Assembly (NCBI RefSeq): GCF_000039765.1
Contig: NC_004459.3
Location: 2,451,127 to 2,483,126 of the forward strand
Direction of reading: 5' to 3'
Length of the DNA: 32,000 nucleotides
DNA from: Vibrio vulnificus CMCP6
GTDB lineage: Bacteria > Pseudomonadota > Gammaproteobacteria > Enterobacterales > Vibrionaceae
Position 1 is the stretch's first letter. Each line of letters starts with the position of its first letter. Positions 5,721 to 28,037 of the stretch are shown piece by piece. The translations under genes were made by a program, and so were the position numbers. A model generated the notes under the pieces. That model saw nothing but the letters and a program-made list of their open reading frames with translations. It searched no databases and was not told the origin of the DNA.

Positions 5721-5846
5721 AACTAACAAACTGCTCAAGAGGGATTCACAACGCGTGGCATTTTCACTATGCGTTGAATTTAGTGATTAAGGTGGTTTTC
5801 GGCGGCTTCGGTATTGCGTTGCTCACCCCTTAGCAGGGCGTTATGC
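5721..5846 (+). repeat. attC site 10 (subtype I, 126 bp)
   Basis: R'' AACTAAC / R' GTTATGC. Confidence 0.9.
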
Positions 5847-6654: not shown

Positions 6655-6781
6655 ACATAACAAGGCGTTCAAGAGGGATTCGTGCCGCGTGGCATTTTTG
6701 GTATGCGGTGAGTTTTGGTGGTGAAAGTGGTCTGCGGAAACTTGGTTTAGGCGGCACTCACCCCTTAACGCAGCGTTATAA
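6655..6781 (+). repeat. attC site 12 (subtype III, 127 bp)
   Basis: R'' ACATAAC / R' GTTATAA. Confidence 0.9.
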
Positions 6782-6801: not shown

Positions 6802-7695
6802 GTGGCAAGCTCTGGTACATATTATTTAGGTCGAGTATTGAAACTTGGTACTCTCGATCAAGAAAAGTTAATGAATGCAATCAAAGAGCCTGTTTCCTTA
6901 TCTTATAGAGGTTCATCTTGGACGTTCATTGACGTCCAAGAAGTTAAGGGTAACGGGGAGCATTATATTTTCGGTCGCCTAAGCAAATACAAGCCGTTAG
7001 GTGAGGTTACTGTCGTAGATACACATCGGAGAACAGAAGAAACACAAATTGAACCTAACTTGAAAGTTGCCTCTAGCCCTTTTGTATATATCCCGTCCCA
7101 CTCGGGTATTGCGTTTCTTAATGTGTATAATCACATTGAACAAAAAGCTTTTGTTAATCGCTTTTGTTCTATTATCGAGGAAACTTATCAACGCTTTTTC
7201 GTTGATTGTGACATTGAGTTAGTCTCAGACTTACGCTCTTTTGCTGCGAAAGTATCATCATTGGATGGTATCTATCATGTTAACGCGAAAATATCTCCTC
7301 CAAACCCAATGTTCGGCTGTCTTTGGGCAGAGTTAAAGGACTACTTAATCAAACGAAACACTGATCGCATGACCGTCGTCGAAGATGCCCCAGAAAGTGA
7401 GCCGCTAAATACAGATCTGCCATATCACATAGAAAAAGCGGCAAACCAGACAGCAGATGAGCAATATGTGTCAGAAGAACCTCTTCCGATCGGGGACGCT
7501 GCAATACTTATGGCAGCAGACGGCTATGGTCATGGAACAGTTAAAGGGAAAAGAGATAATGAAGTTATAACTATTAAAACATCCGAGACAGTAAAGAACT
7601 TTTCCTTCGACAAAAATCCAGAGCCTGATGCTCTTTATCGTAAAGCTCTTGGAATATTTGACGAAATCAAAGAAAAAAGGCACCTGGGTCACTGA
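6802..7695 (+). CDS. hypothetical soluble protein, 297 aa (gene 1 of a two-gene cassette)
   Basis: GTG start 6 nt after SD aggag (6791-6795); no TM segments; motif Y-x-P-x10-Y-N-H at nt 7087-7134; family not recognised. Confidence 0.75.
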   Translation: MASSGTYYLGRVLKLGTLDQEKLMNAIKEPVSLSYRGSSWTFIDVQEVKGNGEHYIFGRLSKYKPLGEVTVVDTHRRTEETQIEPNLKVASSPFVYIPSHSGIAFLNVYNHIEQKAFVNRFCSIIEETYQRFFVDCDIELVSDLRSFAAKVSSLDGIYHVNAKISPPNPMFGCLWAELKDYLIKRNTDRMTVVEDAPESEPLNTDLPYHIEKAANQTADEQYVSEEPLPIGDAAILMAADGYGHGTVKGKRDNEVITIKTSETVKNFSFDKNPEPDALYRKALGIFDEIKEKRHLGH

Positions 7696-8165
7696 TGAAT
7701 CGAATTCTAGATATTTTTCGCTTTACTATTATTTCTCCGGAGTTTGTTGTTATTCTTCTGACGGTTGCAATGACATATAGTTATCCGGAAGTATTTGTAC
7801 TTATAGGTGGAAAACTTAAAGGCAATACAGAACTATGGAAGTTTATCCCCTCATTGCCTGTTATCTTCACTGGCGTGACCTTTAAAGTGGCTCAAAAAGT
7901 TCATGCACCTTTGGAGAATACGTCCAACAAGCAACTTTACGAATGGAGCTCATTCAATAAGGTTTCTGATCGTATAATGGCGTCTTATTTGATTTGTATA
8001 CTTTGTTGTGCCGCTAGTTTTACAATTTGGTTCTTCATGTCAGAGTTGAGTGAACTAATGTTAGGTTCAATATTATTGAGTTCAATCCTAATCTCTGGGT
8101 TAACTACGTTCCAAATTATCTTGGCAGCTCAAAAAATCAGGCAAGTCATAGAGCAATACACATAA
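7695..8165 (+). CDS. small 4-TM membrane protein, 156 aa (gene 2 of a two-gene cassette)
   Basis: ATG overlaps the upstream TGA (TGATG at 7693-7697); four hydrophobic helices by eye. Confidence 0.75.
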   Translation: MNRILDIFRFTIISPEFVVILLTVAMTYSYPEVFVLIGGKLKGNTELWKFIPSLPVIFTGVTFKVAQKVHAPLENTSNKQLYEWSSFNKVSDRIMASYLICILCCAASFTIWFFMSELSELMLGSILLSSILISGLTTFQIILAAQKIRQVIEQYT

Positions 8166-8168
8166 AAT

Positions 8169-8265
8169 TTATAACAAAGCATTTAAGAGTGATTCGCAAC
8201 GCTCGGCATTTTCGCTTCGCTCAAGTATAGCCGAGCGCAGCTCACACCTTAATGCGGCGTTATAT
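8169..8265 (+). repeat. attC site 13 (short subtype S, 97 bp)
   Basis: R'' TTATAAC / R' GTTATAT; near-copy of attC 2 and 31. Confidence 0.9.
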
Positions 8266-8289
8266 GCCTGAAATGAGAACTCCAAAATA

Positions 8290-8715
8290 ATGTCAGAAGA
8301 ACATATGCTTAGAGCTTTGGAAGTTTCTAAGTTTGCTTTGCCAAATTGCCTACCTAATCCACCAGTTGGTTGTGTGTTAGTTAAAGAAGGCAGTATTGTA
8401 GCCGAGGGCTTTACCCAAAAAATTGGCGGTAACCATGCAGAAGTGCAAGCGCTTGAAGCGTACTCAGGCGATATGGACAGTGTCACAGCCTACGTAACAT
8501 TAGAGCCCTGTTCATTTATTGGTAGAACACCTGCCTGTGCTGCGACTCTCGTAAAGTCGGGCATTAAACATGTCGTTGTTTCAATACTTGACCCAGATCC
8601 ACGCAATGGTGGGCGCGGGATTCAAATTCTTGAGCAAGCCGGCGTACAAGTAGATATTGGGCTATGTAGCAGTCAGGTTAGCGCTTTTTTAGAGCCATAT
8701 CTGGGAAAGTCGTAG
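8290..8715 (+). CDS. stand-alone RibD-like (CDA-fold) pyrimidine deaminase domain, 141 aa
   Basis: NPPVGCVLV, zinc motifs HAE and EPCSFIGRTPAC, DPDPRNGGRG; collinear with the N-terminal deaminase domain of RibD; no reductase domain. Confidence 0.85.
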   Translation: MSEEHMLRALEVSKFALPNCLPNPPVGCVLVKEGSIVAEGFTQKIGGNHAEVQALEAYSGDMDSVTAYVTLEPCSFIGRTPACAATLVKSGIKHVVVSILDPDPRNGGRGIQILEQAGVQVDIGLCSSQVSAFLEPYLGKS

Positions 8716-8719
8716 CGGC

Positions 8720-8848
8720 ATATAACAAACGCCTCAAGAGGGACTGTCAACGCGTGGCGTTTCCAGTCCCAATGAGCCGCGGTGGTTACGGTTGTTGTGT
8801 TTGAGTTTAGTTGTTATGCGTTGCCAGCCCCTTAGGCGGGCGTTATGT
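8720..8848 (+). repeat. attC site 14 (subtype V, V. cholerae VCR-like, 129 bp)
   Basis: R'' ATATAAC / R' GTTATGT; ..ACAAACGCCTCAAGAGGGACTGTCAACGCGTGGCGTTTCCAGTCCC..GCGTTGCCAGCCCCTTAGGCGGGCGTTA. Confidence 0.9.
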
Positions 8849-8861
8849 TTTCGGAGGTAAA

Positions 8862-9326
8862 ATGACAAGTCCGAGAGTTTTAAAAGCTCAAATTAAAGAT
8901 GTTATTTGTGGCGAAAATGTCACCGTTATCGAGCCTTCTAATATTTATGGCTGTGAGCTAAAGGATGACGTGTTTATTGGTCCGTTTGTAGAAATACAAA
9001 AAAACTCCGTAATTGGCGCTCGAACAAAGATCCAGTCACACACTTTTATTTGTGAGTATGTAACCATTGGCAACGATTGCTTCGTTGGTCATGGGGTTAT
9101 GTTTGCTAACGATCTTTTTAAGAACGGTCAGCCAGACCCAAATCCAGATAACTGGGGACGCACAGTTATCGCTAACAACGTTACAATTGGATCTAATGCA
9201 ACAGTGTTACCAGTTAGCATATGCGATGGCGTAGTTATTGGTGCTGGTAGTGTTGTGACTAAGAACATTACAGAGAAAGGGATCTACGCAGGAAATCCGG
9301 CTAAAAAGTTAAGAGACTTGCCGTAA
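8862..9326 (+). CDS. hexapeptide-repeat (left-handed beta-helix) acyl/acetyltransferase, 154 aa
   Basis: ATG after SD ggaggt; repeated [LIV]-G-x4 hexapeptides (VIGARTKI, TIGNDCFV, TIGSNATV, VIGAGSVV). Confidence 0.8.
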   Translation: MTSPRVLKAQIKDVICGENVTVIEPSNIYGCELKDDVFIGPFVEIQKNSVIGARTKIQSHTFICEYVTIGNDCFVGHGVMFANDLFKNGQPDPNPDNWGRTVIANNVTIGSNATVLPVSICDGVVIGAGSVVTKNITEKGIYAGNPAKKLRDLP

Positions 9327-9332
9327 GTACAA

Positions 9333-9461
9333 ACATAACAAACGCCTCAAGAGGGACTGTCAACGCGTGGCGTTTCCAGTCCCATTGAGCCGCGGTGGTT
9401 GCAGTTGTTGCGTTTGAGTTTAGTGGTAATGCGTTGCCAGCCCCTTAGGCGGGCGTTAGGC
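9333..9461 (+). repeat. attC site 15 (subtype V, VCR-like, 129 bp)
   Basis: R'' ACATAAC / R' GTTAGGC; near-copy of attC 14. Confidence 0.9.
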
Positions 9462-9491
9462 ATCAGTGGCAATTATTCAGAAACTAATATT

Positions 9492-10070
9492 ATGAAAGAT
9501 ATATTTAAACCAGTCTTAGATGACAATGAAGAAGTACTGTGGGTGGAAAAGCCTTATTTTATAGCATACATGCTAAATGCTTCTTTTGTGTTCTTATGCG
9601 GAATCCCACTATTTTTATTTTTAGGTAGGTCGTCCTCGGAACTTTTTCCTACAGATCCGGTGCAGCTTTTATCTGAGGGGTGTGTCATGTGGTTTGGTTT
9701 AGCGCTAATAATATACAAGTTACTAGTGTATCCAAACACGTTCTATGCGTATTCTAATAAGCGGCTTCTCTTTCGAAGTGGTTTTATGGGTATTGATTAC
9801 AAAGTGATTGATTACGATAAGATCACAAATGCTGAAGTTAATATTAATCCAATTGAGAGTTTGTTTAACGTTGGAACAATCAAGATTTTTTGTGGTGAAG
9901 TCGGCGGTAAAGGTCAACAAATCACTAATGATATAATAGCGATCCCTTACCCAAATGATACATTCAAAAATATCAAACAAGTTTCTATCGATGTTAAGTC
10001 TGACTTGCACTATCCCAACTCACTCCGACCTGAAGAGAACCCCGGTTACAAGACCAAATACAAAAAATGA
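9492..10070 (+). CDS. membrane protein with bacterial PH domain (bPH_2/DUF304-like), 192 aa
   Basis: two TM helices then YAYSNKRLLFRSGFMGIDYKVIDYDKITNAEV..GTIKIF, the usual bPH_2 pattern; track start 9399 lies in attC. Confidence 0.7.
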   Translation: MKDIFKPVLDDNEEVLWVEKPYFIAYMLNASFVFLCGIPLFLFLGRSSSELFPTDPVQLLSEGCVMWFGLALIIYKLLVYPNTFYAYSNKRLLFRSGFMGIDYKVIDYDKITNAEVNINPIESLFNVGTIKIFCGEVGGKGQQITNDIIAIPYPNDTFKNIKQVSIDVKSDLHYPNSLRPEENPGYKTKYKK

Positions 10071-10090
10071 TTGATTTTGTTGGGTAAGAT

Positions 10091-10216
10091 GCCTAACAAA
10101 CTGTTCAAGAGGGATTCGCAACGCGTGGCATTGTCACTATGCGTTGGTTTAAGTGTTTAAGGAGGCATGCAGCGGCATCGGTATTGCGTTGCTCACCCCT
10201 TAACAGGGCGTTATAT
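10091..10216 (+). repeat. attC site 16 (subtype I, 126 bp)
   Basis: R'' GCCTAAC / R' GTTATAT. Confidence 0.9.
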
Positions 10217-10239
10217 GCTTTATCAGTTCAGGAGAAGAA

Positions 10240-10611
10240 ATGGATATTTTAGTGGAACAAGAAATCGAACTTCATCAGTATGAGATACGTAAAAATAGAG
10301 CTGATATTGAACGCCTAATTCACCCGAGTTTTACTGAAGTTGGTAAATCAGGTAACAGTTTTAACTTTAACTCGATAATCGAAATGATGAGTTCAGAAAA
10401 GCCTTCGAATTTTCATGTTCATTCGCAAAAATATGAATGTATTCAACTTGAGCCGTCAGTTCAGCTTCTTAAATATGAATCAGCTTTAGTCAAAGAGTCT
10501 GGTGAAGTAAGCGATTATGCTAAACGTTGTTCTATTTGGGCTTTTACCGGGAGCTGCTGGCAGTTGAAGTATCATCAAGGAACGCCATGCGCGGCTTTTG
10601 AACTGATATAA
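10240..10611 (+). CDS. NTF2-like / DUF4440 family protein, 123 aa
   Basis: SD aggag; ..LIHPSFTEVGKSGNSF.. and C-terminal ..CWQLKYHQGTP are typical of DUF4440 proteins. Confidence 0.8.
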   Translation: MDILVEQEIELHQYEIRKNRADIERLIHPSFTEVGKSGNSFNFNSIIEMMSSEKPSNFHVHSQKYECIQLEPSVQLLKYESALVKESGEVSDYAKRCSIWAFTGSCWQLKYHQGTPCAAFELI

Positions 10612-10632
10612 AGCTAGGCTTGGTGGTCAGGC

Positions 10633-10760
10633 ATATAACAAACAATTTAAGAGGGATTCCCAACGCTTGGCATTTTTGCTTCTACTTCAATTTTAGTGGT
10701 TACGGTACAATGTTTTAGGTTGGGTGGTAGCGTTGCTCACCCCTTAATTGGGCGTTATAC
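10633..10760 (+). repeat. attC site 17 (subtype IV, 128 bp)
   Basis: R'' ATATAAC / R' GTTATAC. Confidence 0.9.
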
Positions 10761-10776
10761 CGCAAAGGAGAAATCA

Positions 10777-11238
10777 ATGATAAAGCAAATAAGCGGTACA
10801 GATCAGTCGCTCTTATCTCTATCAAAAACAACCTTCTCCGAGCTAAGAAGAATCTATCGCCCGACTTCCGAAGCCCACAGAAATCCAGTTAGTTCAACAG
10901 ATGAGTGGACTTGTTTGGGGTACTATTTGGATGACAAGTTAGTGGGTATTATAAAAGCTAAATTGTCTGGCAATATGCTTAATTTAAGTACACTTGCTGT
11001 CATGTCTGAGTACCGTAAAAGAGGTGTCGCTCGAAACTTAATTTTAGAGGCAGAGCGTATGTTCTCATCGGCAGATTTACTCTCAGTTTGGTGTGTTGAG
11101 CAAACTGGAAACGTGGAGATCTTTGAGGCATTAGGTTTCAAGGTTGCGGAGCGGGTTGCATCAGGTATTTTTGGGTTGGCTGACAACTCAAACGCTAAAG
11201 CAGTAGAAGTTCGTTTGGAGCGGCAGGCAGCGGTATAA
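10777..11238 (+). CDS. GNAT family N-acetyltransferase, 153 aa
   Basis: ATG after SD aaaggag; motif A YRKRGVARNLI; stop inside R'' of attC 18. Confidence 0.8.
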   Translation: MIKQISGTDQSLLSLSKTTFSELRRIYRPTSEAHRNPVSSTDEWTCLGYYLDDKLVGIIKAKLSGNMLNLSTLAVMSEYRKRGVARNLILEAERMFSSADLLSVWCVEQTGNVEIFEALGFKVAERVASGIFGLADNSNAKAVEVRLERQAAV

Positions 11239-11358
11239 CAAATTGTTCAAGAGTGATTCGGCACGCGTGGCATTTTTACCATGCGTCAGGTTTTGTGGTT
11301 AAGGTGATATGCGGAGGCTTCGGTATTGCGTGCCTCACACCTTAACAAGGCGTTATGT
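11233..11358 (+). repeat. attC site 18 (subtype I variant, 126 bp)
   Basis: R'' GTATAAC / R' GTTATGT. Confidence 0.9.
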
Positions 11359-11365
11359 GCTTGAT

Positions 11366-11400
11366 GGAAAAACCCTACAATCTAGATCAACTGTAGGGTT
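11366..11400 (-). terminator. Rho-independent terminator for the reverse-oriented gene
   Basis: 9-bp stem aaccctaca (11371-11379) / tgtagggtt (11392-11400), 12-nt loop; on the - strand followed by a T-run (tgtagggtttttcc); 22 nt past the stop. Confidence 0.7.
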
Positions 11401-11422
11401 TATGTAGTGTAGATATGATTGA

Positions 11423-11623
11423 CTAAGACGCATGTTTTCTGAGCTCGTGTGGGTAAACTCTCATTCCATTTAAGGTGTTTTCGTACACAGAGAGCTCTTG
11501 AATGTAAGACCAAACGTGAGCGTCTGTGCTGGTTTGTGCCGCTAGACGAGAGATCACAGCGTCGATATTGCGGCCTGCATAATCTTTGTGAGGAACGAAC
11601 AAATCCCTTATAGCTGACAACAT
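11423..11623 (-). CDS. hypothetical protein, 66 aa; the only reverse-oriented cassette gene
   Basis: ATG with strong SD on the - strand (cacaaggagttaactATG); own terminator; track ORF start 11695 lacks an SD. Confidence 0.7.
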   Translation of the reverse strand: MLSAIRDLFVPHKDYAGRNIDAVISRLAAQTSTDAHVWSYIQELSVYENTLNGMRVYPHELRKHAS

Positions 11624-11762
11624 AGTTAACTCCTTGTGTAATAAAATTACAGTGTTGTATAAATAAAACGTAGTAGGGTTTGTTTGTATGATCAAGTTAG
11701 GCGCATAAATTTAATTTAGATTTCATAATTGTAATTTTATGGTCAGACTACGCAGGGTACGC

Positions 11763-11890
11763 ACATAACAAAGCATTTAAGAGTGATTCCCAACGCTTGG
11801 CATTCTCATCTCAAGGTTGGTTTTGTGTTTACGGTGCAATGGTTTAAGTTAGGTGGTTAGCGTTGCTCACACCTTAATGCGGCGTTATGC
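11763..11890 (+). repeat. attC site 19 (subtype IV, 128 bp)
   Basis: R'' ACATAAC / R' GTTATGC. Confidence 0.9.
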
Positions 11891-12235
11891 TTAATCACGT
11901 AAAATCAGTGGTTTATGGTTTTTCTTTGTTCCCTCGGCTGGTTGATTTCGAGTTTGTCGGCAAGTTAGCTTCATTGGGCGCTGTTTTCTGGACATTTATT
12001 CTTTGGCGCTGAAAATTCAGAGCGTTGCCTCAGTCAATTTTCGGGTAAGCGCGAGGTTAGGGAAGTTGGCTCAATCAGCAATTTTATCTTAGGTTTTTGA
12101 GTTTTAGCGGCCGAATTTCAAAGCCCAGATTTCCAAAACTATGAGTCATTTCGGTTTTCTATGTTTTGGCTTTTGTTTGTAAATCAAAGTCGAGTTAATC
12201 TTGTTTCTAGTAAAACGTAACCCATTGAAGCTTAA
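11891..12235 (+). mobile_element. gene-less cassette body, family A copy 2
   Basis: aligns with the other A copies; no conserved ORF. Confidence 0.8.
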
Positions 12236-12362
12236 GCATAACAAGGCGTTTAAGTGGGATTTGGCACGCGTGGCATTTTCAGTTTGCGTTGGGTTCAGTG
12301 GTTACGGTACTGTGCGGTAGCTTTTGTATTGCGTGCCTGCACCCCTTAACGCAGCGTTATGT
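12236..12362 (+). repeat. attC site 20 (subtype II, 127 bp)
   Basis: R'' GCATAAC / R' GTTATGT. Confidence 0.9.
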
Positions 12363-12708
12363 TTAATCACGTAAAATCAGTTGGTTGCACTCTTTTTTGC
12401 TCACGCAGCTTTCAAGTTTTTCCCTTGTCGGCAAGTTAACATCGTTGATCGCTGTTTTCTGGACTCCAATTCGTGGGCGCTAAAAATTCAGAGAGTTGCC
12501 TCATTGAAATGTAGTGTTTGGGTGAGGCGAGTGCAGCTTGCTCAGTTTTAAAGTTAGAGCTTCAGGTTTTCGTTTTCTAACATTGCAACTCAAAGTAAAT
12601 CCAATTAATTTTATTAGTTAATTCAGTTTTTTAGGCTGTGGCTTTGGTGTGTAAAGGTAAGTCGAGTTAAGCTCTTGGTATCGTAAAACTTAACCCTTTG
12701 AGTCTTAA
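12363..12708 (+). mobile_element. gene-less cassette body, family B copy 2
   Basis: aligns with 6319-6654. Confidence 0.8.
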
Positions 12709-12835
12709 ACATAACAAGGCGTTCAAGTGGGATTCATGCCGCGTGGCATTTTTGGTATGCGGTTGGTTTTGGTGGTGAAAGTGGTGTGCGGAAAGCTGGT
12801 TTAGGCGGCATTCACCCCTTAACGCGGCGTTAGGC
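12709..12835 (+). repeat. attC site 21 (subtype III, 127 bp)
   Basis: R'' ACATAAC / R' GTTAGGC. Confidence 0.9.
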
Positions 12836-12848
12836 AATAGAGGTAAAA

Positions 12849-13772
12849 ATGAGCATTAGCGATATAAAAGATCTGATTCAAATATTTGGAAGTTTTGGCA
12901 TTGGAGCAATAATAGGGGCTGGCTTTCTCTTTTTTGTATTAAAGTCATTCTTACCCGCTTATTTTACCGAAAAAGCTAAGAATCTCGCGACGAAAGAAGA
13001 TATTGGAGAAATTACTAGTGAAGTTGAACAAGTCAAATCTGGTTATGCAGAGATGCTTGAAGAGGTTAAAAGTAACCATCAATTGAGACTAGCATCAATT
13101 GAAAGAGAAAAGCTCCTTAAGAAAGAAGTATACCTAGATAGTGTAGAAGCATTGACTAAGTATCAAGGCGCTTTAGGTTTGATGGCAAACCTTGATATTT
13201 CGAACCAGATAATAGCGGACTCATTTTCAGAGAACGCAGCTCAGATTGCTAAAATCACTCTGGTTGGGACGGAAATAACGGTAAAGAATTTAACTAACTT
13301 CACCGGTGAAGTAGGTGTAGCATATATGAGTCTTTTCCTCGAACGTGGTCTATTAATAAACCGTAAGGTTCATATCGAGTTCTTAGAAACTTATAGAAAA
13401 AAGCACAATGATGAAATCGAGCGCTGCTTAACCATTATGAAAAACATGAACTTAGATGGCGTCAGAGATGAAGGTGCATGGGGGCGTGTAAATCTTGCTT
13501 TTGAAAATGAGTGTAAGTCGCGAGATCAGATAGCATCTGAAATTGATGCGAATTGGGCTGTTCAAAATGAAGAACATTTTAAGTTTACTGAGCGTTGTAT
13601 GTCTGAGTTTTTTCGAGTCAATGACTTAACTCCTCACCTCCTTCTTTCTGTGCGAGAGGAGTTAGATCTTGAGCTAGATGAAAGTGAGTATATTAAAATT
13701 CACGCAGCTAATTCACAGAAAGGTCGTGCAGTTTTCGAAACTTTTATGAGCAACCTGCAAAATATTGCCTAA
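12849..13772 (+). CDS. N-terminally membrane-anchored, mostly helical hypothetical protein, 307 aa
   Basis: SD agaggt; TM FGSFGIGAIIGAGFLFFVL followed by a charged, heptad-like region; stop inside R'' of attC 22. Confidence 0.75.
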   Translation: MSISDIKDLIQIFGSFGIGAIIGAGFLFFVLKSFLPAYFTEKAKNLATKEDIGEITSEVEQVKSGYAEMLEEVKSNHQLRLASIEREKLLKKEVYLDSVEALTKYQGALGLMANLDISNQIIADSFSENAAQIAKITLVGTEITVKNLTNFTGEVGVAYMSLFLERGLLINRKVHIEFLETYRKKHNDEIERCLTIMKNMNLDGVRDEGAWGRVNLAFENECKSRDQIASEIDANWAVQNEEHFKFTERCMSEFFRVNDLTPHLLLSVREELDLELDESEYIKIHAANSQKGRAVFETFMSNLQNIA

Positions 13773-13895
13773 CAAAGCATTTAAGAGTGATTCGCAACGC
13801 TTGGCATTTTTCACTCCATCGTTGGGTTTTGTGTTTACGGTGGCATTGTTTAGGTTAGGTGGTAGCGTTGCTCACACCTTAATGCGGCGTTATAC
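13767..13895 (+). repeat. attC site 22 (subtype IV, 129 bp)
   Basis: R'' GCCTAAC / R' GTTATAC. Confidence 0.9.
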
Positions 13896-13922
13896 CTTTA
13901 TCTGTAGTTATTTGGAGTCAGA

Positions 13923-14555
13923 GTGTTTTCAGATTTATTAAGAATATTAAAAGTGCTTTTTTCTGGCTTGGAGAAAGTAAAATCTATCTCTGATGATGCC
14001 CAAAGGCAAAAAGCACATGTACAAATATTTTCGACATACTTTGTCTTAAAAGACATGACCGAAGATGCCTTACGTCTTATGAACAGCTGTGGGTGGGATC
14101 CTGTTCATTATATCGGGTCACTCAAAGATGAAGACTTGAAGCCGTATCTCTCAGTTTGTGACTGTATTCTCCGTGAGCAAGGGGCTAGGCTATATGTGCT
14201 CCAGCAAGCCATCTTTTCAGATTCATGCCTTGCTTTCAAAGACTATGAGTTGCAGAAGCGGTTAAGGGAAATAATTGGTCATAAAAGTGATCGAGTACGG
14301 ACTCTACATGGTGCAGCTTCTGGCTTGGTTATTAATGCAATGCTGCCGACTTGTGAAACACCAGAAGACCGCATTGAATTAATATTAAGCATGTCTGGTG
14401 TAGATCCTGATGCAGTTAATGCTAAAGAAATCGAAATAGAGATCAGAGAGTTTGAATCGTTACTTACTCGTTATAAAGAGTACGCGGAACAGCTTGTAGA
14501 ACCATCAAACTTGATAAAAGTAATAGAAAAAGCCCGTTCAAATGCAAATGGTTAG
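13923..14555 (+). CDS. hypothetical protein, 210 aa
   Basis: GTG start 5 nt after SD ggag (13914-13917); fills the cassette; no family recognised. Confidence 0.7.
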   Translation: MFSDLLRILKVLFSGLEKVKSISDDAQRQKAHVQIFSTYFVLKDMTEDALRLMNSCGWDPVHYIGSLKDEDLKPYLSVCDCILREQGARLYVLQQAIFSDSCLAFKDYELQKRLREIIGHKSDRVRTLHGAASGLVINAMLPTCETPEDRIELILSMSGVDPDAVNAKEIEIEIREFESLLTRYKEYAEQLVEPSNLIKVIEKARSNANG

Positions 14556-14560
14556 AACAG

Positions 14561-14686
14561 GTATAACAAACTGTTTAAGAGGGATTCGCAACGCGTGGCA
14601 TTTTTACTGTGCGTTGGTTTTAGTGTTTAAGGTGGTATGCAGCGACTTTGGTATTGCGTTGCTCACCCCTTAACAGAGCGTTATGT
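14561..14686 (+). repeat. attC site 23 (subtype I, 126 bp)
   Basis: R'' GTATAAC / R' GTTATGT. Confidence 0.9.
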
Positions 14687-15019
14687 TTAATTACGTAAAA
14701 TCAGCAGCTTGCATCTTTTCTTGGATTTCTAATTTTGGCTTTGTCGGCAAGTTAACTTCAGTGGTCGCTGTTTTCTGGACTCCAAATTGTGGGCGCTAAA
14801 AATTCTGCGAGTTGCCTCAGTCAATTTTCGGATAAGCACGAGGTTAGGGTGGCTGGCTCAATCGGAAATTTGATCTTAGTTTTTTGAATTTTGACTGTTA
14901 AGTTCAAAGTTTGATTTTCAAAATTTTGAGTCGTTTCAGTTTTTAGGTTTTGGCTTTTGTTTGTAAATCAAAGCAGAGTTAATCTTGGTTTTGGTAAAAC
15001 GTAAGCCCTTGAAGCTTAA
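14687..15019 (+). mobile_element. gene-less cassette body, mosaic of B-type 5' half and A-type 3' half
   Basis: up to ~14811-14820 (gttgcctcag) it follows family B; after that it follows family A (..gtcaattttcgg.taagc.cgaggttaggg..). Confidence 0.75.
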
Positions 15020-15146
15020 ACATAACAAGGCGTTCAAGTGGGATTCATGCCGCGTGGCATTTTTGGTATGCAGTGAGTTTTGGCGGTGAAAGTGGTCTGC
15101 GGAAAGTTGGTTTAGGCGGCATTCACCCCTTAACGCAGCGTTAGTT
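15020..15146 (+). repeat. attC site 24 (subtype III, 127 bp)
   Basis: R'' ACATAAC / R' GTTAGTT. Confidence 0.9.
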
Positions 15147-15505
15147 GCCAACGAGGAAAAATGTACCTGAAGCAGAATGTTTAGGGCTAATGTCGATGTG
15201 TTTTTGGCTAGGTTTTCGTATTTCCATTTCTAGTTATTTGGATTTGTGAAAATCGTGTTTTGGTTCCTTGTGCGGTTTGGGTTTTCTGCTGCAGACGCTG
15301 ATTAGCTTGTTGAAAGTCTGCTCTGCTGTATTGTCGTTCCAAAAGGTTTGTTTGGTGTTCAAAGTCCGTTTTCTACGGCGTTGTAAATTCCAAGTGGTTT
15401 CAGTGACAGACGCTTTGAAACTGCGCCTGATTTGAGTTTTCAGAACACATAACCTTAGTGTTGGCAAAGCGGTAATTGACTTCAAATGAAAGCGTTAGGC
15501 TTGGC
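15147..15505 (+). mobile_element. gene-less cassette body, family C copy 1
   Basis: aligns with 19719-20072 and 30577-30935; starts ttagttgccaacgaggaaaa, ends ttggcaactaac. Confidence 0.8.
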
Positions 15506-15634
15506 AACTAACAAAGCATTCAAGAGGGACAGTCAACGCGTGGCGAGTTTGGTTTAAATCTTGGCATCTGTGTTTACGGTGTTAAATTGAAGTTCTGTGG
15601 TAGCGCGTTGCTGCCCCTTAATGCGGCGTTAAGC
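15506..15634 (+). repeat. attC site 25 (divergent; 5' arm partly VCR-like, 129 bp)
   Basis: R'' AACTAAC / R' GTTAAGC; ..GGGACAGTCAACGCGTGGCG.. Confidence 0.85.
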
Positions 15635-15648
15635 TACTAGGAGAAAAT

Positions 15649-16176
15649 ATGGCACGAGTTAGAGTATATCCACACAATGATTTGATGAATCTTGCGCATT
15701 ATCAGAGAGAAACTATTCGTAATAAGTTAGCAAGCGATGAAGAATATGCATTAGCTTTAGATTGTTTATCATGTCTGATTTCATTGGCATTTTCAGTAGA
15801 AGCTCTCGTTAATTTCGTCGGTTCAAAGAGAGTTAAAGGGTGGGAAGAGCGCAAGCCTTACCATGACAAAATTTCTCAGGTGTGTTCTTCAGCAGGAGAA
15901 GAGTTTGATAAAAGTGTAGGTGTCTATAAATCGCTTTGGGAGCTGAAAGAATTGCGAGATTCAATCGCTCATGGGAAACCAATCGAATTTACTACAGATG
16001 TTAAAACTCGTGATGAATTACGCACGCAAATGCAATGCCCATGGGATAGCAGTTTGACTCCTGAACATGTAGAAACCAATTATGAAATCGTCAAAAATTT
16101 TGAACGAATGCTGTTTGAAAAATGTAAGATTAATATTGGTGAAACCGTTACCTCAGCGGTAATGGCGGGCAAGTAG
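15649..16176 (+). CDS. HEPN-like protein (Rx4H motif), 175 aa
   Basis: SD aggag; helical-looking sequence with ELRDSIAHG (R103-H108, nt 15955-15972), matching the HEPN R[ND]xxxH signature. Confidence 0.55.
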   Translation: MARVRVYPHNDLMNLAHYQRETIRNKLASDEEYALALDCLSCLISLAFSVEALVNFVGSKRVKGWEERKPYHDKISQVCSSAGEEFDKSVGVYKSLWELKELRDSIAHGKPIEFTTDVKTRDELRTQMQCPWDSSLTPEHVETNYEIVKNFERMLFEKCKINIGETVTSAVMAGK

Positions 16177-16301
16177 CTTAACAATCTGTTTAAGAGTGAT
16201 TCGCAACGCTTGGCATTTTTGCTATGCGTTGCGTGTAGTGTTTAAGGTGGTATGCGATAGCTTCGGTATTGCGTTGCTCACACCTTAACAGGGCGTTAAG
16301 T
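16176..16301 (+). repeat. attC site 26 (subtype I, 126 bp)
   Basis: R'' GCTTAAC / R' GTTAAGT. Confidence 0.9.
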
Positions 16302-16317
16302 GTCAAAAGGAGAAATA

Positions 16318-16746
16318 ATGGCAGCAAATGGAGCAATATACATACAAAGAGATAATGTTGATCTAAAAGATGTATTTGATGATGTGACAAGCGACAAAGG
16401 TATATTTAGAAAGCCAACGTACTACGATGTCAAGTTAGGTGAGGATGTTGTTCGATTCAATATTATGGAATCTTCAGAAATTCCTAATCATATTGATGGT
16501 TTTCTTGGGTACATCGCTTCTTTGAACAATAGCGACGATAGAAAAGAGAATACTAGTTACGCAATTAGTCATACAAAAGTTGTGCTTGGACTAGTTTCTG
16601 ATACTGACTTTGAAGATAACCACAAGATCTGGCAAAGCCTATTTCAGATAGCAGACAAATATGACGGCTTTGTCTTCGTTTATGACAGCGTTCTTTTACC
16701 TAATGGGGCAGCCTTGGTTGGACCATTGGTACAAACAGACACTTAA
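16318..16746 (+). CDS. hypothetical protein, 142 aa
   Basis: ATG after SD aaaggag (16306-16312); track start 16300 lies in attC. Confidence 0.7.
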   Translation: MAANGAIYIQRDNVDLKDVFDDVTSDKGIFRKPTYYDVKLGEDVVRFNIMESSEIPNHIDGFLGYIASLNNSDDRKENTSYAISHTKVVLGLVSDTDFEDNHKIWQSLFQIADKYDGFVFVYDSVLLPNGAALVGPLVQTDT

Positions 16747-16868
16747 CAAAGCATTTAAGACGGATTCCCAACGCTCGGCATTTTTGGTTTGCTTCAACTT
16801 CGGTGTTTACGGCATCATACTTTAAGTTTGGTGGTCTGCGTTGCTCACCACTTAATGCGGCGTTATAA
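16741..16868 (+). repeat. attC site 27 (subtype IV, 128 bp)
   Basis: R'' ACTTAAC / R' GTTATAA. Confidence 0.9.
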
Positions 16869-16882
16869 GCCAAAGAGGAAAT

Positions 16883-17251
16883 ATGGAAAATTCTTTAATA
16901 CTTGTTACTCTCAGTGCGGAGCAAATATCCCAAGCTAAAGCGGTCAATGGGCAGCGCAAACAGATTACCCATGCATTGCTTTGCGGTTCTTATGGGCAAA
17001 TGTTTGGTACTGAAAAACAGTGCTCGAAATACTACAACGTATGGAAAGATATTTTCCAAGACCTATTTTCCGAGTCAAAATCTGTGCAGGCTTGTGATGT
17101 GATTAATTATGAATCAACCTTTGATTTAGTGAACATTCTAATAGCTGCTGCTGACGAAAAGAAACAGGTTAATAAATGCATTAAACCAACTAAAGGTCAG
17201 AAACCTCAGCCAACAGAAAAGAAAGGGTTTTGGGCACGTATCTTTGGGTAG
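16883..17251 (+). CDS. hypothetical protein, 122 aa
   Basis: SD aagagga; lysine/proline-rich C-terminal tail; no family recognised. Confidence 0.7.
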   Translation: MENSLILVTLSAEQISQAKAVNGQRKQITHALLCGSYGQMFGTEKQCSKYYNVWKDIFQDLFSESKSVQACDVINYESTFDLVNILIAAADEKKQVNKCIKPTKGQKPQPTEKKGFWARIFG

Positions 17252-17253
17252 GC

Positions 17254-17381
17254 TTATAACAAGCAATTTAAGAGGGATTCACAACGCTTGGCATTTTGGG
17301 TTCTACTTCAAATTTAGTGTTTATGGCACAATGCTTTAGGTTGGGTGGTAGCGTTGTTCACCCCTTAATTGGGCGTTATGT
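17254..17381 (+). repeat. attC site 28 (subtype IV, 128 bp)
   Basis: R'' TTATAAC / R' GTTATGT. Confidence 0.9.
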
Positions 17382-17392
17382 TTACAAGGAGT

Positions 17393-18052
17393 ATGATGAA
17401 AAAGGACAAATTTGCTCGAAAGCTTACAAAACTAGATGATCGTGCATATATACGGAGATGTATGTGGCCTGATTTAGATGTAAGGATAGAAAAAGAGTTT
17501 AAGACCTTTCAGAAAGAGTCTCTAGCTGCTTTTGGTGACGTGTACCTGACTCAATTGAAACAACGAAAAAAATACAGAAATTCAAACTTATTAAGTAGTC
17601 AGTTCCATAATGCAACATACGTAAAATTCGGTAGTAGAAGTCTAGGTATAGCTAAAATTCCAAATGAAAATAAGGAACCTTTGGCGATATGTAGTGAACG
17701 AAATGCGCAACTTTATTACACTCAAGGCTCAATTGGAGATGTTTTAGTAGTGCTTTCTCCGTACACCTCAGAGATCTACAATGTTCACGAAAAGAATATT
17801 GTCATTGCTAGATATAAACAACCTGTAGACATATCGCCTAGGTTGATTAATAAGCATCTAAAGGTTTTCAAAAAATATGCTTTGGCCTCGAGTCATGCCT
17901 CTGCTGGGTTATTATCGCCATACCTGTTTAGGCGTTGGCTACAGTTAAAAGATTTCAGGTACAAAGACAACAATAGAGCAGAACTGATACGTGTTATTGA
18001 AAGGGTTATTTTGGTCTCGCTTGCTGCAATTAGTGCTTGGTTGGCAAAATAA
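17393..18052 (+). CDS. hypothetical protein with C-terminal hydrophobic anchor, ~219 aa (ATG 17393 or 17396)
   Basis: SD aaggag (17386-17391); C-terminus VILVSLAAISAWLAK; track start 17369 lies in attC. Confidence 0.7.
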   Translation: MMKKDKFARKLTKLDDRAYIRRCMWPDLDVRIEKEFKTFQKESLAAFGDVYLTQLKQRKKYRNSNLLSSQFHNATYVKFGSRSLGIAKIPNENKEPLAICSERNAQLYYTQGSIGDVLVVLSPYTSEIYNVHEKNIVIARYKQPVDISPRLINKHLKVFKKYALASSHASAGLLSPYLFRRWLQLKDFRYKDNNRAELIRVIERVILVSLAAISAWLAK

Positions 18053-18180
18053 ACATAACAAGCAATTTAAGAGGGATTCACAACGCTTGGCATTTTTGCT
18101 TCTACATCAAATTTAGTGTTTATGGCACAATCTTTTAGGTTGGGTGGTAGCGTTGTTCACCCCTTAATTGGGCGTTAGAA
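18053..18180 (+). repeat. attC site 29 (subtype IV, 128 bp)
   Basis: R'' ACATAAC / R' GTTAGAA. Confidence 0.9.
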
Positions 18181-18197
18181 ATTACAAGGAATGTATC

Positions 18198-18677
18198 TTG
18201 CGTAAAAATAAGATTTTTTGGGGCTTATCAGCCCTATGTCTGAGTATGCCCATTGCAGCGAGTAGCGCAGACAAATTGCTGTTAGAAGCGAACTCAAAGT
18301 TAGCATTATCGTATTCACCTTATCGCCTTGCTGAAGTTGAAACTACCGATTCAAAGTCGGTATTTGGTCAAATAATGGCAGGAACTCCTGGGCAAACAAT
18401 TGCTGTAGTAGACAAACTTGTACTGAAAGATGTACTTGATAGTTTCCATCAAATGTGTGGCTATCAGCCAAGTCAAGTGACTGCCATAAATGTAGTCTCA
18501 CATAGCTACCCAGAGTTTTATGAAGTGTGGGAGTTTGATGACAACGACTCACATATGGACAACGGAAAGTCAGCTCTATCATTGGTTTTAAAAGCTTTAC
18601 CCAATAATGGTGGAACAGATATAGACATTTATGGGGATTGCCATCCCAAACCACTGAGTTTCACGAACCTAAAGTAA
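18198..18677 (+). CDS. secreted hypothetical protein, ~159 aa (TTG start)
   Basis: TTG 7 nt after SD aagga (18186-18190); then a signal-like RKNKIFWGLSALCLSMPIAASSA; start choice is uncertain. Confidence 0.6.
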   Translation: MRKNKIFWGLSALCLSMPIAASSADKLLLEANSKLALSYSPYRLAEVETTDSKSVFGQIMAGTPGQTIAVVDKLVLKDVLDSFHQMCGYQPSQVTAINVVSHSYPEFYEVWEFDDNDSHMDNGKSALSLVLKALPNNGGTDIDIYGDCHPKPLSFTNLK

Positions 18678-18678
18678 T

Positions 18679-18805
18679 TTCTAACAAAGCATTTAAGAGG
18701 GATTCACAACGCTTGGCATTTTTGGTTTGAATCGGCTTTAGTGTTTACAGCACAATGGTTTAGGTTAGGTGGTGGCGTTGTTCACCCCTTAATGCGGCGT
18801 TATTC
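18679..18805 (+). repeat. attC site 30 (subtype IV, 127 bp)
   Basis: R'' TTCTAAC / R' GTTATTC. Confidence 0.9.
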
Positions 18806-18829
18806 AGCTTAAGAAACTTCGAGGAAATA

Positions 18830-19627
18830 ATGGAAGAAAAGTACAAAATCCACTCATTTTATATTCTAACAATTCTTTTAACGATAATTGTACTGTTAGT
18901 TACCGTAGAGTGGTCGACAATAGAAGGATTGAAAGATTACATATCTTTTGCACTTACTGTGTTTTCACTAGGTTTAGCTATTATAGCTATCATTTATTCT
19001 ATGTATTCAAACTCATCTCTTACGTCGAGTTTAACGTTGCTGGAGACTTCAAGTAGTAAACTATCTTTGACATCAGAAAGTCTTTCTTCGTCTACTAATC
19101 AATTATCGGAAACTGTTCGAGGTATCCCAAAGGCCATTGAAAAAGTAGAATCCAGAGTTTCTGAAACTCATGATTTAGTTAAAAATTTGGAGTTAAGTGC
19201 TCCACCTTCAAATATTGTCGGGAATGTATCTGACGAGCTATCCGAGGGGTTTATAAATGACTTTATTAGTAGGTTATCTTACAACGGATTACTAACATTG
19301 TTTACTATCAACTTTTTCTATCGTCACAAAATGATATTTGAATTTGACGGAGAATTAGTAGAAGCGATGGAAATGGACAAAGATTATGCATTTGCTTCGT
19401 TTATAGCGATGAAAGCTATGGGGCTATTTAAAGTTAAAGATAAAGGAAGTGCTTATTTGGTAGTCGATTTTCATCCATATACCGACTCAATGATTGTCAA
19501 AGGGTTGAATGAAAAAATAGGCGAGTTGTTTTCTGATGAAGAAGACTTACTAAACGAAGTGAAAGAGGATTTCAATCGCTTTCAAGCTTATTTAAACTCA
19601 AAAATGGAAGCAGAAATCGCAGAATAA
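18830..19627 (+). CDS. 2-TM membrane-anchored hypothetical protein, 265 aa
   Basis: SD gagga; two N-terminal TM helices, a Ser/Leu-rich helical linker, and a C-terminal globular part of unknown family. Confidence 0.75.
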   Translation: MEEKYKIHSFYILTILLTIIVLLVTVEWSTIEGLKDYISFALTVFSLGLAIIAIIYSMYSNSSLTSSLTLLETSSSKLSLTSESLSSSTNQLSETVRGIPKAIEKVESRVSETHDLVKNLELSAPPSNIVGNVSDELSEGFINDFISRLSYNGLLTLFTINFFYRHKMIFEFDGELVEAMEMDKDYAFASFIAMKAMGLFKVKDKGSAYLVVDFHPYTDSMIVKGLNEKIGELFSDEEDLLNEVKEDFNRFQAYLNSKMEAEIAE

Positions 19628-19718
19628 CAAAGCATTTAAGAGTGATTCGCAACGCTTGGCGGTTTCGCTTCGCTCAAGTATAGCCAAGCGTCGCTCACAC
19701 CTTAATGCGGCGTTAGTT
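19622..19718 (+). repeat. attC site 31 (short subtype S, 97 bp)
   Basis: R'' GAATAAC / R' GTTAGTT. Confidence 0.9.
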
Positions 19719-20072
19719 GCCAACGAGGAAAACGCAGCTTAAACAGAATGTTTAGAGTTAAAGTCAGTGTGTTTTTGGTGGGGTTTCGTACTTCAATTTT
19801 AAATCGTTCGGGTTTGTGAAAATCGTTCTCAGGTTTCTTTTGTGGTTGGATTCGTTTCAGAAACCGAATCACTAGTTGAGAGTCAGCTCTGTGACATTGT
19901 CTTTTCAAATGAGCGTTTTGGTGTTGTCAGTTCGTTTTCTACGGCGTTGCGTGTTCCAAGTGGTTTCAGTGACAGGCGCTTTGAAACTGCGCCTGAACTG
20001 AGTTTTTCAAAGCACGTAAAGCAAGTGTTGGCAAAGTGGTAATTAACTTCAAGTCAAAGCTTTAGGTTTGGC
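19719..20072 (+). mobile_element. gene-less cassette body, family C copy 2
   Basis: aligns with C1 and C3; ORF 19842..20042 judged non-coding. Confidence 0.8.
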
Positions 20073-20199
20073 AACTAACAAAGCATTCAAGAGGGATTCA
20101 CAACGCTTGGCAGTTTTGGTTTGAATCAGCTTTAGTGTTTACGGCACAATAGCTTAGGTTGGGTGGTGGCGTTGTTCACCCCTTAATGCGGCGTTATAT
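20073..20199 (+). repeat. attC site 32 (subtype IV, 127 bp)
   Basis: R'' AACTAAC / R' GTTATAT. Confidence 0.9.
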
Positions 20200-20352
20200 G
20201 CAGTGCAGCTCTGAAACATAGACATTAAGCTAAATTTATGATTTATGTGACCTCAGTTGCTTATTGTCATTCTTATTATCACTAAACTTGTCGAGTCTGT
20301 TCAAAGCAGAACATTGGCTTGCGAAATACAACGGAGATAATAAGGAAATATA

Positions 20353-20493
20353 ATGAGAGTCTTAATTTTATTGTTGGCTACATTGTTTGTGAGTAATTCT
20401 GTCCTAGCTCATGGCGGAGGGTGTCGTAAGAGTTCACCACCTGGTCAATGTTGCCACAAAGACAATAGTACAGGCACAGTACATTGCCACTAG
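20353..20493 (+). CDS. small secreted Cys/His-rich peptide, 46 aa (absent from the ORF track)
   Basis: SD aagga (20342-20346); MRVLILLLATLFVSNSVLA then HGGGCRKSSPPGQCCHKDNSTGTVHCH (4 Cys, 4 His in 27 aa); only plausible ORF in this cassette. Confidence 0.6.
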   Translation: MRVLILLLATLFVSNSVLAHGGGCRKSSPPGQCCHKDNSTGTVHCH

Positions 20494-20505
20494 TCTGAAC
20501 CTTGC

Positions 20506-20632
20506 ATATAACAAGGCATTTAAGAGGGATTCAAAACGCGTGGCATTTGCGGTTTGAATCCATTTTTGTGTGTACTTTGTTCAATTTTAAATTGGGGGTA
20601 AGCGTTTTTCACCCCTTAATGCGGCGTTAGCT
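20506..20632 (+). repeat. attC site 33 (divergent subtype IV, 127 bp)
   Basis: R'' ATATAAC / R' GTTAGCT. Confidence 0.85.
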
Positions 20633-20672
20633 AACCAACGTAAGAATAATAATATGTAGTAAGGAAATATAG

Positions 20673-21548
20673 ATGGCAGGTAATTTTCGAGTTCATGCAT
20701 TTGGTATTGTTGGACTAAACGACAAAACTGATGACTTAGAGGACGTTTTAAACGATATACTCGCTGATGATATCGAGGACCGTGTTAGAACAATTGGTCA
20801 ACACGAGATTCGAGTAGAACATATTGAGAAGGTTGACGGTGTATGGCATCTAGACTTTGTGAAATTTCGTGATGTTCATGGACCTGGTAAAGGTTCGAGA
20901 AAGACAAAGGTTTTAGGCTTTGACTTTAAGGCGGGTGAAGTTTTTTGTGAGGAAACTGCATTAATGTACTGCCCTAAGCGCAGTTACATTTTACTTCAGT
21001 ATAACCATCATGGGGTTCGGTATTCTGCTATAGAGGATTACTTCAGTGTTTATAGTGGGAACCCTGATAATCAATATGAGCTTCAAGCCAAGTACGATGA
21101 TGATGTGGATCGCAAGTTTACATCTAGGAAAGCGACTAAGTCGCTAACCTTGGCAATCGATCCTAGGCTGTTAAGCGATAAGGATCGAGACTCAAAGACA
21201 GCATTAGGCAGTGCAATTGAGTTGGGTGACAAGTCAAATGCGTCGAAGATTGAAATTACTATCACAGCAGGCAGAGAGAAGAAGCGTTTTCTTTCAAAGT
21301 TTATCGACGATACTGCGACAAAAATGAAAAAACTTGCAGAGAAAAATCCTGATGCAGTAGGTAAATTGCGTGCAGGAGTTGTTAGCTCGGGCGTCGATGA
21401 AAAACTGCAAGTTTTAGACTTAATTGAAGAGCGTTTGTGCCGAAACTTTACTGATATCCCTGTAGGCAACGATAAACGTTGGCCCAGAGATGCGAGATAT
21501 AAAGCTCTCGAAAGGGCACGACGCGGTTGGAAAAAAATAATGGGTTAA
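20673..21548 (+). CDS. hypothetical soluble protein, 291 aa (gene 1 of a two-gene cassette)
   Basis: SD aagga (20661-20665); no TM segments; motif Y-x-P-x8-Y-N-H (residues 99-112); family not recognised. Confidence 0.8.
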   Translation: MAGNFRVHAFGIVGLNDKTDDLEDVLNDILADDIEDRVRTIGQHEIRVEHIEKVDGVWHLDFVKFRDVHGPGKGSRKTKVLGFDFKAGEVFCEETALMYCPKRSYILLQYNHHGVRYSAIEDYFSVYSGNPDNQYELQAKYDDDVDRKFTSRKATKSLTLAIDPRLLSDKDRDSKTALGSAIELGDKSNASKIEITITAGREKKRFLSKFIDDTATKMKKLAEKNPDAVGKLRAGVVSSGVDEKLQVLDLIEERLCRNFTDIPVGNDKRWPRDARYKALERARRGWKKIMG

Positions 21549-21553
21549 TTTTT

Positions 21554-21976
21554 ATGCACTTATATGTTGAAAAATCATATCCATATGTTTTGGCTTCAGG
21601 TGCCAGCTTTGCGTGGTTCTATTTCAAAATGTCGTTTCCAGTAGGGAACGACATTTTGTCAGCATCTCTAACAATTGGAGCCATACTTACTGGCTTTTTA
21701 GCTACAGCAAAAACATTGCTTATGACTTTAGATACGCCTGTAATGAATAGGATCCGAAGTACAGCTTATGCTCAAGATTTAGCCTCTTACCTTGGTGAAG
21801 CTATTTGGCTATGCTTTGGCTTTTGTGTCTTAGCAATGGTTGGCTACTTTTGTAGTACTAGTAAACTTTGGTACGGGGTTGTTTGGATTTTTATTTCAAT
21901 TGCAGCGTCATTTGCTTTCATTAGGGTGACGACGATCATGCTCAAAATCATTAAGCACCAACCAAGCAAAAGTTAG
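21554..21976 (+). CDS. small 4-TM membrane protein, ~140 aa (gene 2; alternative TTG start at 21527 overlapping gene 1)
   Basis: ATG 6 nt after the upstream stop; four hydrophobic helices by eye; basic C-terminal tail. Confidence 0.75.
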   Translation: MHLYVEKSYPYVLASGASFAWFYFKMSFPVGNDILSASLTIGAILTGFLATAKTLLMTLDTPVMNRIRSTAYAQDLASYLGEAIWLCFGFCVLAMVGYFCSTSKLWYGVVWIFISIAASFAFIRVTTIMLKIIKHQPSKS

Positions 21977-22100
21977 CTAACAAACAATTCAAGAGTGATT
22001 CAGCACGCTTGGCATTTTTGGTTTGGGTTCGGTTCAGTGTTTACGGTGTTCAAATGAAATGTCGTGGCAGCGTGCTTCACACCTTAATTGGGCGTTAGCT
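21975..22100 (+). repeat. attC site 34 (divergent subtype IV, 126 bp)
   Basis: R'' AGCTAAC / R' GTTAGCT. Confidence 0.85.
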
Positions 22101-24419: not shown

Positions 24420-24434
24420 CCTTTGGGAATGAAC

Positions 24435-28036: not shown

Positions 28037-28037
28037 T

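Follow-up and report, generated by a model that had tools for sequence, protein, structure and literature searches.

The window considered here, a stretch of 32,000 nt of the Vibrio vulnificus CMCP6 genome that was analysed as a whole, contains two gene pairs that raise the question of whether they share an ancestor and which function they may have. Each pair encodes a soluble protein (protein A, 297 aa, and protein B, 291 aa) followed by a small protein with four hydrophobic segments (partner A and partner B, respectively). A first-pass annotation had proposed from a motif common to the two large proteins that both pairs represent one divergent family. We consider it likely that the two cassettes are anciently diverged RexAB-like modules that act against phages by abortive infection, a resemblance that had escaped the first-pass annotation. 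The best reading of proteins A and B is that they stand for two branches of a RexA-fold superfamily and not for one family in two copies.

Predicted fold and families of the soluble proteins

Protein A is encoded on the forward strand at 6802-7695, with a GTG start located 6 nt after the sequence AGGAG. Protein B is encoded on the same strand at 20673-21548. For both proteins, AlphaFold2 models were built template-free and from independent alignments. The predicted local distance difference test (pLDDT) and predicted template modelling (pTM) scores were 90.3 and 0.87 for protein A and 82.6 and 0.74 for protein B. In Foldseek comparisons against the PDB, RexA of phage lambda (PDB: 8TWQ) was the first match of both models, each time with a probability of 1.00 and with E-values of 1.4e-5 (model A) and 3.5e-8 (model B). 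The next matches were again common to both models: RdgC from Escherichia coli (PDB: 2OWL, E ~1e-3) and CENP-N, the same set as reported for RexA itself (PMC11077077). Five further matches of model A were phage proteins that are uncharacterised and 277-322 aa long, with E-values between 2.8e-13 and 3.4e-7 and template modelling scores (TM-scores) of at most 0.59.

The similarity extends to the succession of the structural elements. About 19 secondary-structure elements follow each other in the same order in the two models, and when their DSSP strings were globally aligned, the score was z = 3.8 over permutations of the element order, a value reached by none of 200 permutations. This order fits the two-domain topology of RexA, i.e. 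a globular domain with a split beta-sheet, an inserted beta/alpha dimerisation domain and a C-terminal helix. Roughly residues 1-130 make up the N-terminal portion of the globular domain, and roughly residues 134-240 form the central one. Different predicted folds had been named beforehand in the first-pass annotation as one of two conditions that would jointly refute its proposal, beside an insignificant HHalign probability; instead, both models lead to RexA 8TWQ through collinear elements. Together with the matching gene order, the matching gene sizes and the four-segment partner, the same predicted fold makes common ancestry at the level of a superfamily the economical reading.

At the level of protein families, the two soluble proteins are distinct. 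The N-terminal 23 residues of protein A are conserved among its relatives (family A), with invariant G10 and R11, and the motifs PPNP and DGYG are the signature of this family. The precomputed annotation with PF15931.11 (DUF4747) covers the exact protein A and most of its relatives as unmarked entries (E <= 1e-5). The preceding model, PF15931.10, does not match protein A and recognises one of 55 close and seven of 44 distant relatives; evidently, the boundary of this Pfam family has shifted between releases. Protein A appears to lie at the periphery of DUF4747, the domain family of RexA and of the Sbash and CarolAnn proteins. Relatives are numerous, with 563 clusters in a word-indexed search and 490 representatives at 50% clustering in an exhaustive search with a hidden Markov model (HMM). 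They are mostly chromosomal and spread over more than ten phyla; a single locus is on a viral contig.

Protein B clearly belongs to DUF6731 (PF20505; E 3.4e-22, 79.7 bits against a gathering cut-off of 27), and the same model matches all 25 relatives that were scanned. It also matches phrog_10865 (E 3e-15) and, weakly, the PADLOC candidate PDC-M67A (E 7e-5). The signature motifs in its family (family B) are FCEET and QYNHHG. The relatives comprise 45 clusters and 12 loci on viral contigs, where this family is frequent. At three loci (L008, L016 and L021) the family B pair is located directly downstream of a gene for an S24-peptidase/helix-turn-helix repressor-like protein on the same strand, an arrangement that corresponds to the order cI-rexA-rexB in phage lambda. 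An identical protein from V. vulnificus CMCP6 (AAO10801.1) is deposited as 'Coenzyme F420-dependent N5,N10-methylene tetrahydromethanopterin reductase'. This name is unsupported, protein B being a DUF6731 protein with a RexA fold. The affiliation to two Pfam families with differing signature motifs contradicts the proposal of a single divergent family that is present twice.

The motif that had drawn attention to the two proteins is only partly meaningful. The strings quoted in the first-pass annotation are indeed present at the positions given there. In protein A, EET occupies residues 79-81 and YIPSHSGIAFLNVYNH residues 96-111 (nt 7087-7134); protein B contains FCEET at residues 91-95 and YCPKRSYILLQYNH at residues 99-112, and an EL...I.P segment follows in both, DIELVSDLRSFAAKVSSLDGIYHVNAKISPP in protein A and YELQAKYDDDVDRKFTSRKATKSLTLAIDPR in protein B. 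FCEET and QYNHHG show almost no variation within family B. Family A varies at E80 and T81 and has W at position 109 in 62% and H at position 111 in only 12% of its sequences, and the originally proposed pattern Y.P.{6,11}YNH occurs in one of 108 relatives, which is the window protein itself. Since YNH is not conserved in family A, this half of the motif is a coincidence, and a register that aligns the YNH of protein A with the YNH of protein B is ruled out. The Y-x-P hairpin, in contrast, is conserved and in register. Y-x-P lies at the end of a beta-strand in both families (Y96 77% and P98 87% in A; Y99 89% and P101 85% in B), and the returning strand carries an aromatic-x-H (Y/F105 84% and H107 53% in A; Y110 and H112 both 100% in B). 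Some 35-45 residues after Y-x-P, a D...F...P pattern within a strand-helix-strand unit is conserved in both families as well.

A permissive HHalign alignment of the two families is collinear over the full length and places the Y-x-P of both in one column. In this register the counterpart of the YNH of protein B is formed by residues 105-107 of protein A, not by residues 109-111. The second shared feature of the first-pass annotation, the later EL...I.P segment, has withstood the comparison: it is the best-scoring local profile match (A 137-167 against B 136-165), it is conserved in both families, and the models of A and B agree in placing it on a strand-helix-strand unit. In shuffles of protein A the composite motif arose near its position at a frequency of 2.5e-5, a figure that refers to a pattern chosen after being seen. 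Could the motif then be due to chance, and the two loci be linked by nothing but their neighbourhood in one array? The unconserved EET and YNH of protein A and the HHalign P-value of 0.11 for the two families agree with such a view, but the shared first match to RexA has largely refuted it already, and the collinear elements speak against it, as does the family-wide retention of the Y-x-P hairpin and the strand-helix-strand segment at corresponding positions. We regard it as very improbable.

Membrane partners and cassette boundaries

Both large genes are followed by a gene for a small hydrophobic protein. Partner A (156 aa) is encoded on the forward strand at 7695-8165, and its ATG overlaps the stop codon of the upstream gene by one base. 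The RexB-like partner B (140 aa) is encoded on the forward strand at 21554-21976. For the latter, an extension to a TTG codon at 21527 (149 aa) is possible and both starts are found in public annotations; the ATG at 21554 is the likelier one since relatives begin 5-8 residues before a conserved E-K-x-x-P-Y. The four-helix topology and the similar length that the first-pass annotation had ascribed to the partners were confirmed, with four hydrophobic segments in each protein of 156 and 140 aa, respectively. In the family-averaged hydropathy of both, segments 1 and 2 are separated from segments 3 and 4 by a polar loop, some 25-30 residues long, which is the layout of RexB. This loop is conserved in both partners.

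The pairing is a property of the families. Among 80 genome loci of family A from many phyla, 76 have an open reading frame (ORF) for 119-174 aa after the large gene; all but three of these ORFs encode 152-174 aa, and they mostly overlap the large gene by 1-4 nt. Three of the four loci lacking a partner are located at contig ends. The fourth, from Pseudomonas guineae (L104, 3001-3867), is the only family A locus with ample downstream sequence (~3 kb) in which no partner was found in the ORF scan. In family B, a hydrophobic ORF for 126-164 aa follows the DUF6731 gene at all 13 loci.

Partner B resembles RexB of phage lambda. HHalign aligned the two over 112 collinear columns with E-values of 3e-4 to 6e-4 and a probability of 30-40%, and both contain a P-Y close to segment 1 as well as a G-Y within the central loop. 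None of 100 shuffles of RexB that preserved its hydrophobic layout reached the score of 28.8 obtained with partner B; the mean of the shuffles was 12.1 (standard deviation 2.3). The resemblance at the sequence level thus appears weak but non-random. A Pfam scan of both partners returned no matching model, including that of RexB (PF15968).

The whole window is an array of cassettes of a Vibrio-type chromosomal integron. More than 40 copies of attC repeats, with lengths of about 95-130 nt, are distributed over it in several subfamilies, which include full-length forms (about 125 nt) and a short form (94 nt). Nearly all substantial ORFs are located on the forward strand and the GC skew is uniformly positive from 1 to 32000. 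Cassette A starts behind the attC at 6655-6780 (forward strand; repeat families D1, D3 and D10), whose terminal GTTATA was read at 6775-6780, and is closed by an attC of the short 94-nt type at 8171-8264 (forward strand; repeat family D13), which also ends in GTTATA. Its contents are the genes 6802-7695 and 7695-8165. Cassette B extends from the GTTAGC at 20626-20631, the end of the attC at 20507-20631 (forward strand; D1 and D3), to the attC at 21977-22099 (forward strand; D2) with a terminal GTTAGC at 22094-22099, and it contains the gene 20673-21548 and the membrane gene that ends at 21976. Both pairs show the features of integron cassettes, i.e. an attC-bounded unit, an upstream site that ends in GTTRRRY and the single orientation of the array. 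Each two-gene pair is one cassette of about 1.47-1.48 kb.

Exact matches to proteins A and B are present in V. vulnificus genomes including CMCP6, in other Vibrio species, in Aeromonas and in Shewanella. Identical copies of protein A occupy differing array positions in other genomes (L002 4797-7364, L004 and L005), which fits a mobile cassette. In one other genome the identical protein is encoded by the first cassette, adjoining the integron integrase gene. At L004 the gene of the identical protein A is not followed by a called partner gene, and at L005 the cassette that follows it encodes a HEPN_AbiU2 protein.

Elsewhere in the array, small cassettes or segments are repeated. Positions 1-176 and 24387-24562 are 99% identical, a 245-nt segment at 6534-6778 recurs at 12588-12832 with 93% identity, and a 300-nt segment (5816-6115) has four further copies with 70-85% identity. 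Another two-gene cassette is located at 27068-28424. Its first gene encodes a protein of 322 aa with a C-terminal nucleotidyltransferase domain of the Pol-beta type (E 1.7e-4) and weak matches to the PADLOC models PDC-S09 and PDC-M05A; the second gene starts 2 nt past the stop codon of the first and encodes 128 aa. This cassette may contain an MNT/HEPN-like pair. The ORF 9399-10070 encodes a protein of 223 aa with a bacterial PH domain (bPH_2, E 5.6e-10).

Sequence comparisons and alternative explanations

Several results weigh against an affiliation of both cassettes to RexAB-like modules. A significant HHalign link between the two families had been set beforehand as a check and was not obtained. 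The profiles consisted of 55 and 24 sequences (shallow) or 108 and 54 sequences (deep) and were used with and without secondary structure derived from the models, and at all depths the probability was 0.5-0.7% (P = 0.11). Nor did an HMM of one protein find the other, as had been suggested: searches of HMM against sequence in both directions, shallow and deep, remained at background level. BLASTP of the two large proteins gave only short matches with E >= 0.55 and that of the small proteins nothing significant. Against lambda RexA, HHalign gave probabilities of 0.1-0.4% for the two family profiles, and the Pfam model of RexA (PF15969) matched neither protein A nor protein B, with lambda RexA itself as control at 1e-97. 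Among the PADLOC models, no named defence system matched protein A or B; the sole hit, and a weak one, was protein B to the candidate model PDC-M67A. Partner A has no similarity to RexB that HHalign detects. A detectable homology between partners A and B is ruled out by an HHalign probability of 4% with a non-collinear alignment. No promoter-like site was found on the forward strand of cassette A or cassette B. Finally, the global TM-scores of the models to 8TWQ are low, 0.31 for A and 0.39 for B, with root-mean-square deviations of 13-17 Å. A profile search of PDB sequences with both families yielded nothing relevant and a scan with NCBIfam nothing useful, and tblastn of the two large proteins against 50,697 phage genomes gave no match (E <= 1e-3).

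For the low TM-scores, the structure of RexA itself may offer an explanation. Its two domains are joined by hinge and swivel loops, and the protein was crystallised in a closed state (PMC11077077), so that a mismatch in a rigid-body superposition is to be expected. We tentatively attribute the low global scores of the models to such a movement between the domains.

The background level of all sequence and profile comparisons between A and B, the TM-scores of just 0.31-0.39, the wholly different signature motifs and the membrane partners that are not detectably related could also be taken to mean that the cassettes are analogous and not homologous. Two unrelated soluble proteins would then each have been combined with a small membrane protein, and the likeness to RexA would be over-read from a Foldseek match with a low TM-score. 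We hold this to be quite unlikely. Two independent template-free models share an unusual set of top matches, RexA, RdgC and CENP-N, with RexA at a probability of 1.00; some 19 secondary-structure elements are in the same order and the permissive HHalign alignment is collinear with the Y-x-P hairpin aligned; and the gene order, the sizes and the topology of the partners agree. The distant homology proposed in the first-pass annotation is thus upheld by the fold and the operon architecture, not by the sequence. Inspection of motifs by eye had come upon a genuine relationship of structure, in part for the wrong reasons; profile methods alone would have rejected it. The two membrane partners may share an ancestor as well.

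A further possibility is that proteins A and B are DNA-binding proteins of the RexA/RdgC fold with a main role other than phage exclusion, either in recombination or in modulating the choice between lysis and lysogeny, or that the pairs are addiction modules that stabilise the array. RdgC is the next structural match of both models. Non-specific DNA binding is described for lambda RexA and for its homologues from actinophages, and the lambda switch is biased by RexA without any need for RexB (PMC11077077). An addiction module would be in keeping with the abundance of toxin-antitoxin cassettes in integron arrays and with the lack of an own promoter in both cassettes. However, a strictly conserved and translationally coupled membrane partner points to a membrane effector, an integron cassette has no cI/cro switch to modulate, and every experimentally tested pair of such an architecture excludes phages. 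In our estimation these roles are unlikely.

Proposed mode of action and known systems

If both cassettes are RexAB-like modules, a mode of action can be drawn by analogy with RexAB of lambda, gp30/gp31 of Sbash, gp44/gp43 of CarolAnn and Sucellos. The soluble RexA-fold protein, probably as a dimer, would sense a cue of infection, which may be a phage protein or a DNA or replication intermediate. It would then activate the membrane partner, whose gene appears to be translationally coupled, or nearly so, with the first. The partner would open as a channel or pore, and the membrane potential and the ATP level would collapse. In this way the infection would be aborted and the infected cell lost. 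The conserved motifs and surfaces of the two putative sensors differ, which suggests that they respond to different triggers, and different triggers would explain why one array holds both cassettes. The lack of a recognisable promoter in either cassette, unlike in Sucellos, makes their expression at the present array positions uncertain.

RexAB-like integron cassettes and DUF4747 defence pairs have already been published, and the two pairs represent no new kind of biology. They do offer a testable function for two families whose members are at present hypothetical, assigned to domains of unknown function or wrongly annotated, and they add two candidate abortive-infection cassettes to the defence systems stored in the chromosomal integrons of Vibrio. 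What is added, beside the finding that one array holds two branches, is the connection of DUF6731 and its partner to RexA and RexB. A broader view is possible, though we consider it doubtful: the RexAB superfamily might be larger and older than the Pfam families RexA and RexB, with three or more sensor families that are not recognisable from one another (RexA proper, DUF4747-like and DUF6731), each tied to an effector with four transmembrane segments (4-TM). The DUF4747-like branch, whose members are mostly located outside prophages, would have exchanged its effector for a non-homologous one, and two branches with different triggers would have come together in one Vibrio array.

RdgC (2OWL) is the second structural match of proteins A and B, as it is for RexA, but the match is weaker and RdgC has no membrane partner. 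The existing entries for the family of protein B (DUF6731, PHROG 10865 and PDC-M67A) give no function and neither a RexA fold nor a RexB-like partner.

A DUF4747 domain has been reported in lambda RexA, in gp30 of Sbash and in gp44 of CarolAnn, all of which have 4-TM partners and exclude other phages (PMC6426596, PMC6426606). In the CarolAnn and Sbash pairs, the central loop of the partner is functionally important (PMC6426596), and a recent paper handles DUF4747/CarolAnn as an immune operon (PMC13373217). Cassette A resembles CarolAnn gp44-gp43 and Sbash gp30-gp31 in the probable peripheral DUF4747 affiliation of protein A, in the layout with two genes and in the polar loop of partner A. In contrast, the actinophage proteins are longer (370-372 aa), and family A is rarely located on viral contigs and yielded no phage match with tblastn.

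The Sucellos system (SclA/SclB) is a two-gene cassette in the integron of V. cholerae N16961 that is RexAB-like in structure and has no Rex match in Pfam. It protects against phages, requires both genes and causes early lysis or killing of the infected cells (bioRxiv 10.1101/2024.07.02.601686). Judging from the primer names in this paper, SclA and SclB would correspond to VCA0367-0368. Compared by its description, Sucellos shares with cassettes A and B the nature of a two-gene Vibrio integron cassette and a likeness to RexAB that is apparent by structure and not by Pfam. In N16961 it has its own promoter and an insertion sequence, whereas cassettes A and B are devoid of a promoter-like site. 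No protein in the homologue lists had the very high contig count that would be expected of a pandemic lineage, hence a close kinship to Sucellos seems unlikely.

Both cassettes may also be compared with RexA and RexB of phage lambda. Neither pair matches PF15969 or PF15968, and partner A is not detectably RexB-like. The likeness lies in the architecture, in which a gene for a RexA-fold protein (about 280-300 aa) precedes one for a four-segment membrane protein (about 140-156 aa), and in RexA as the best match of A and B among solved structures, together with the collinearity of partner B with RexB. Even the genomic context recurs in part, since some DUF6731 relatives follow a repressor-like gene, as rexAB follows cI. 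The lambda genes reside in the immunity region of a prophage, while the present pairs are carried by integron cassettes.

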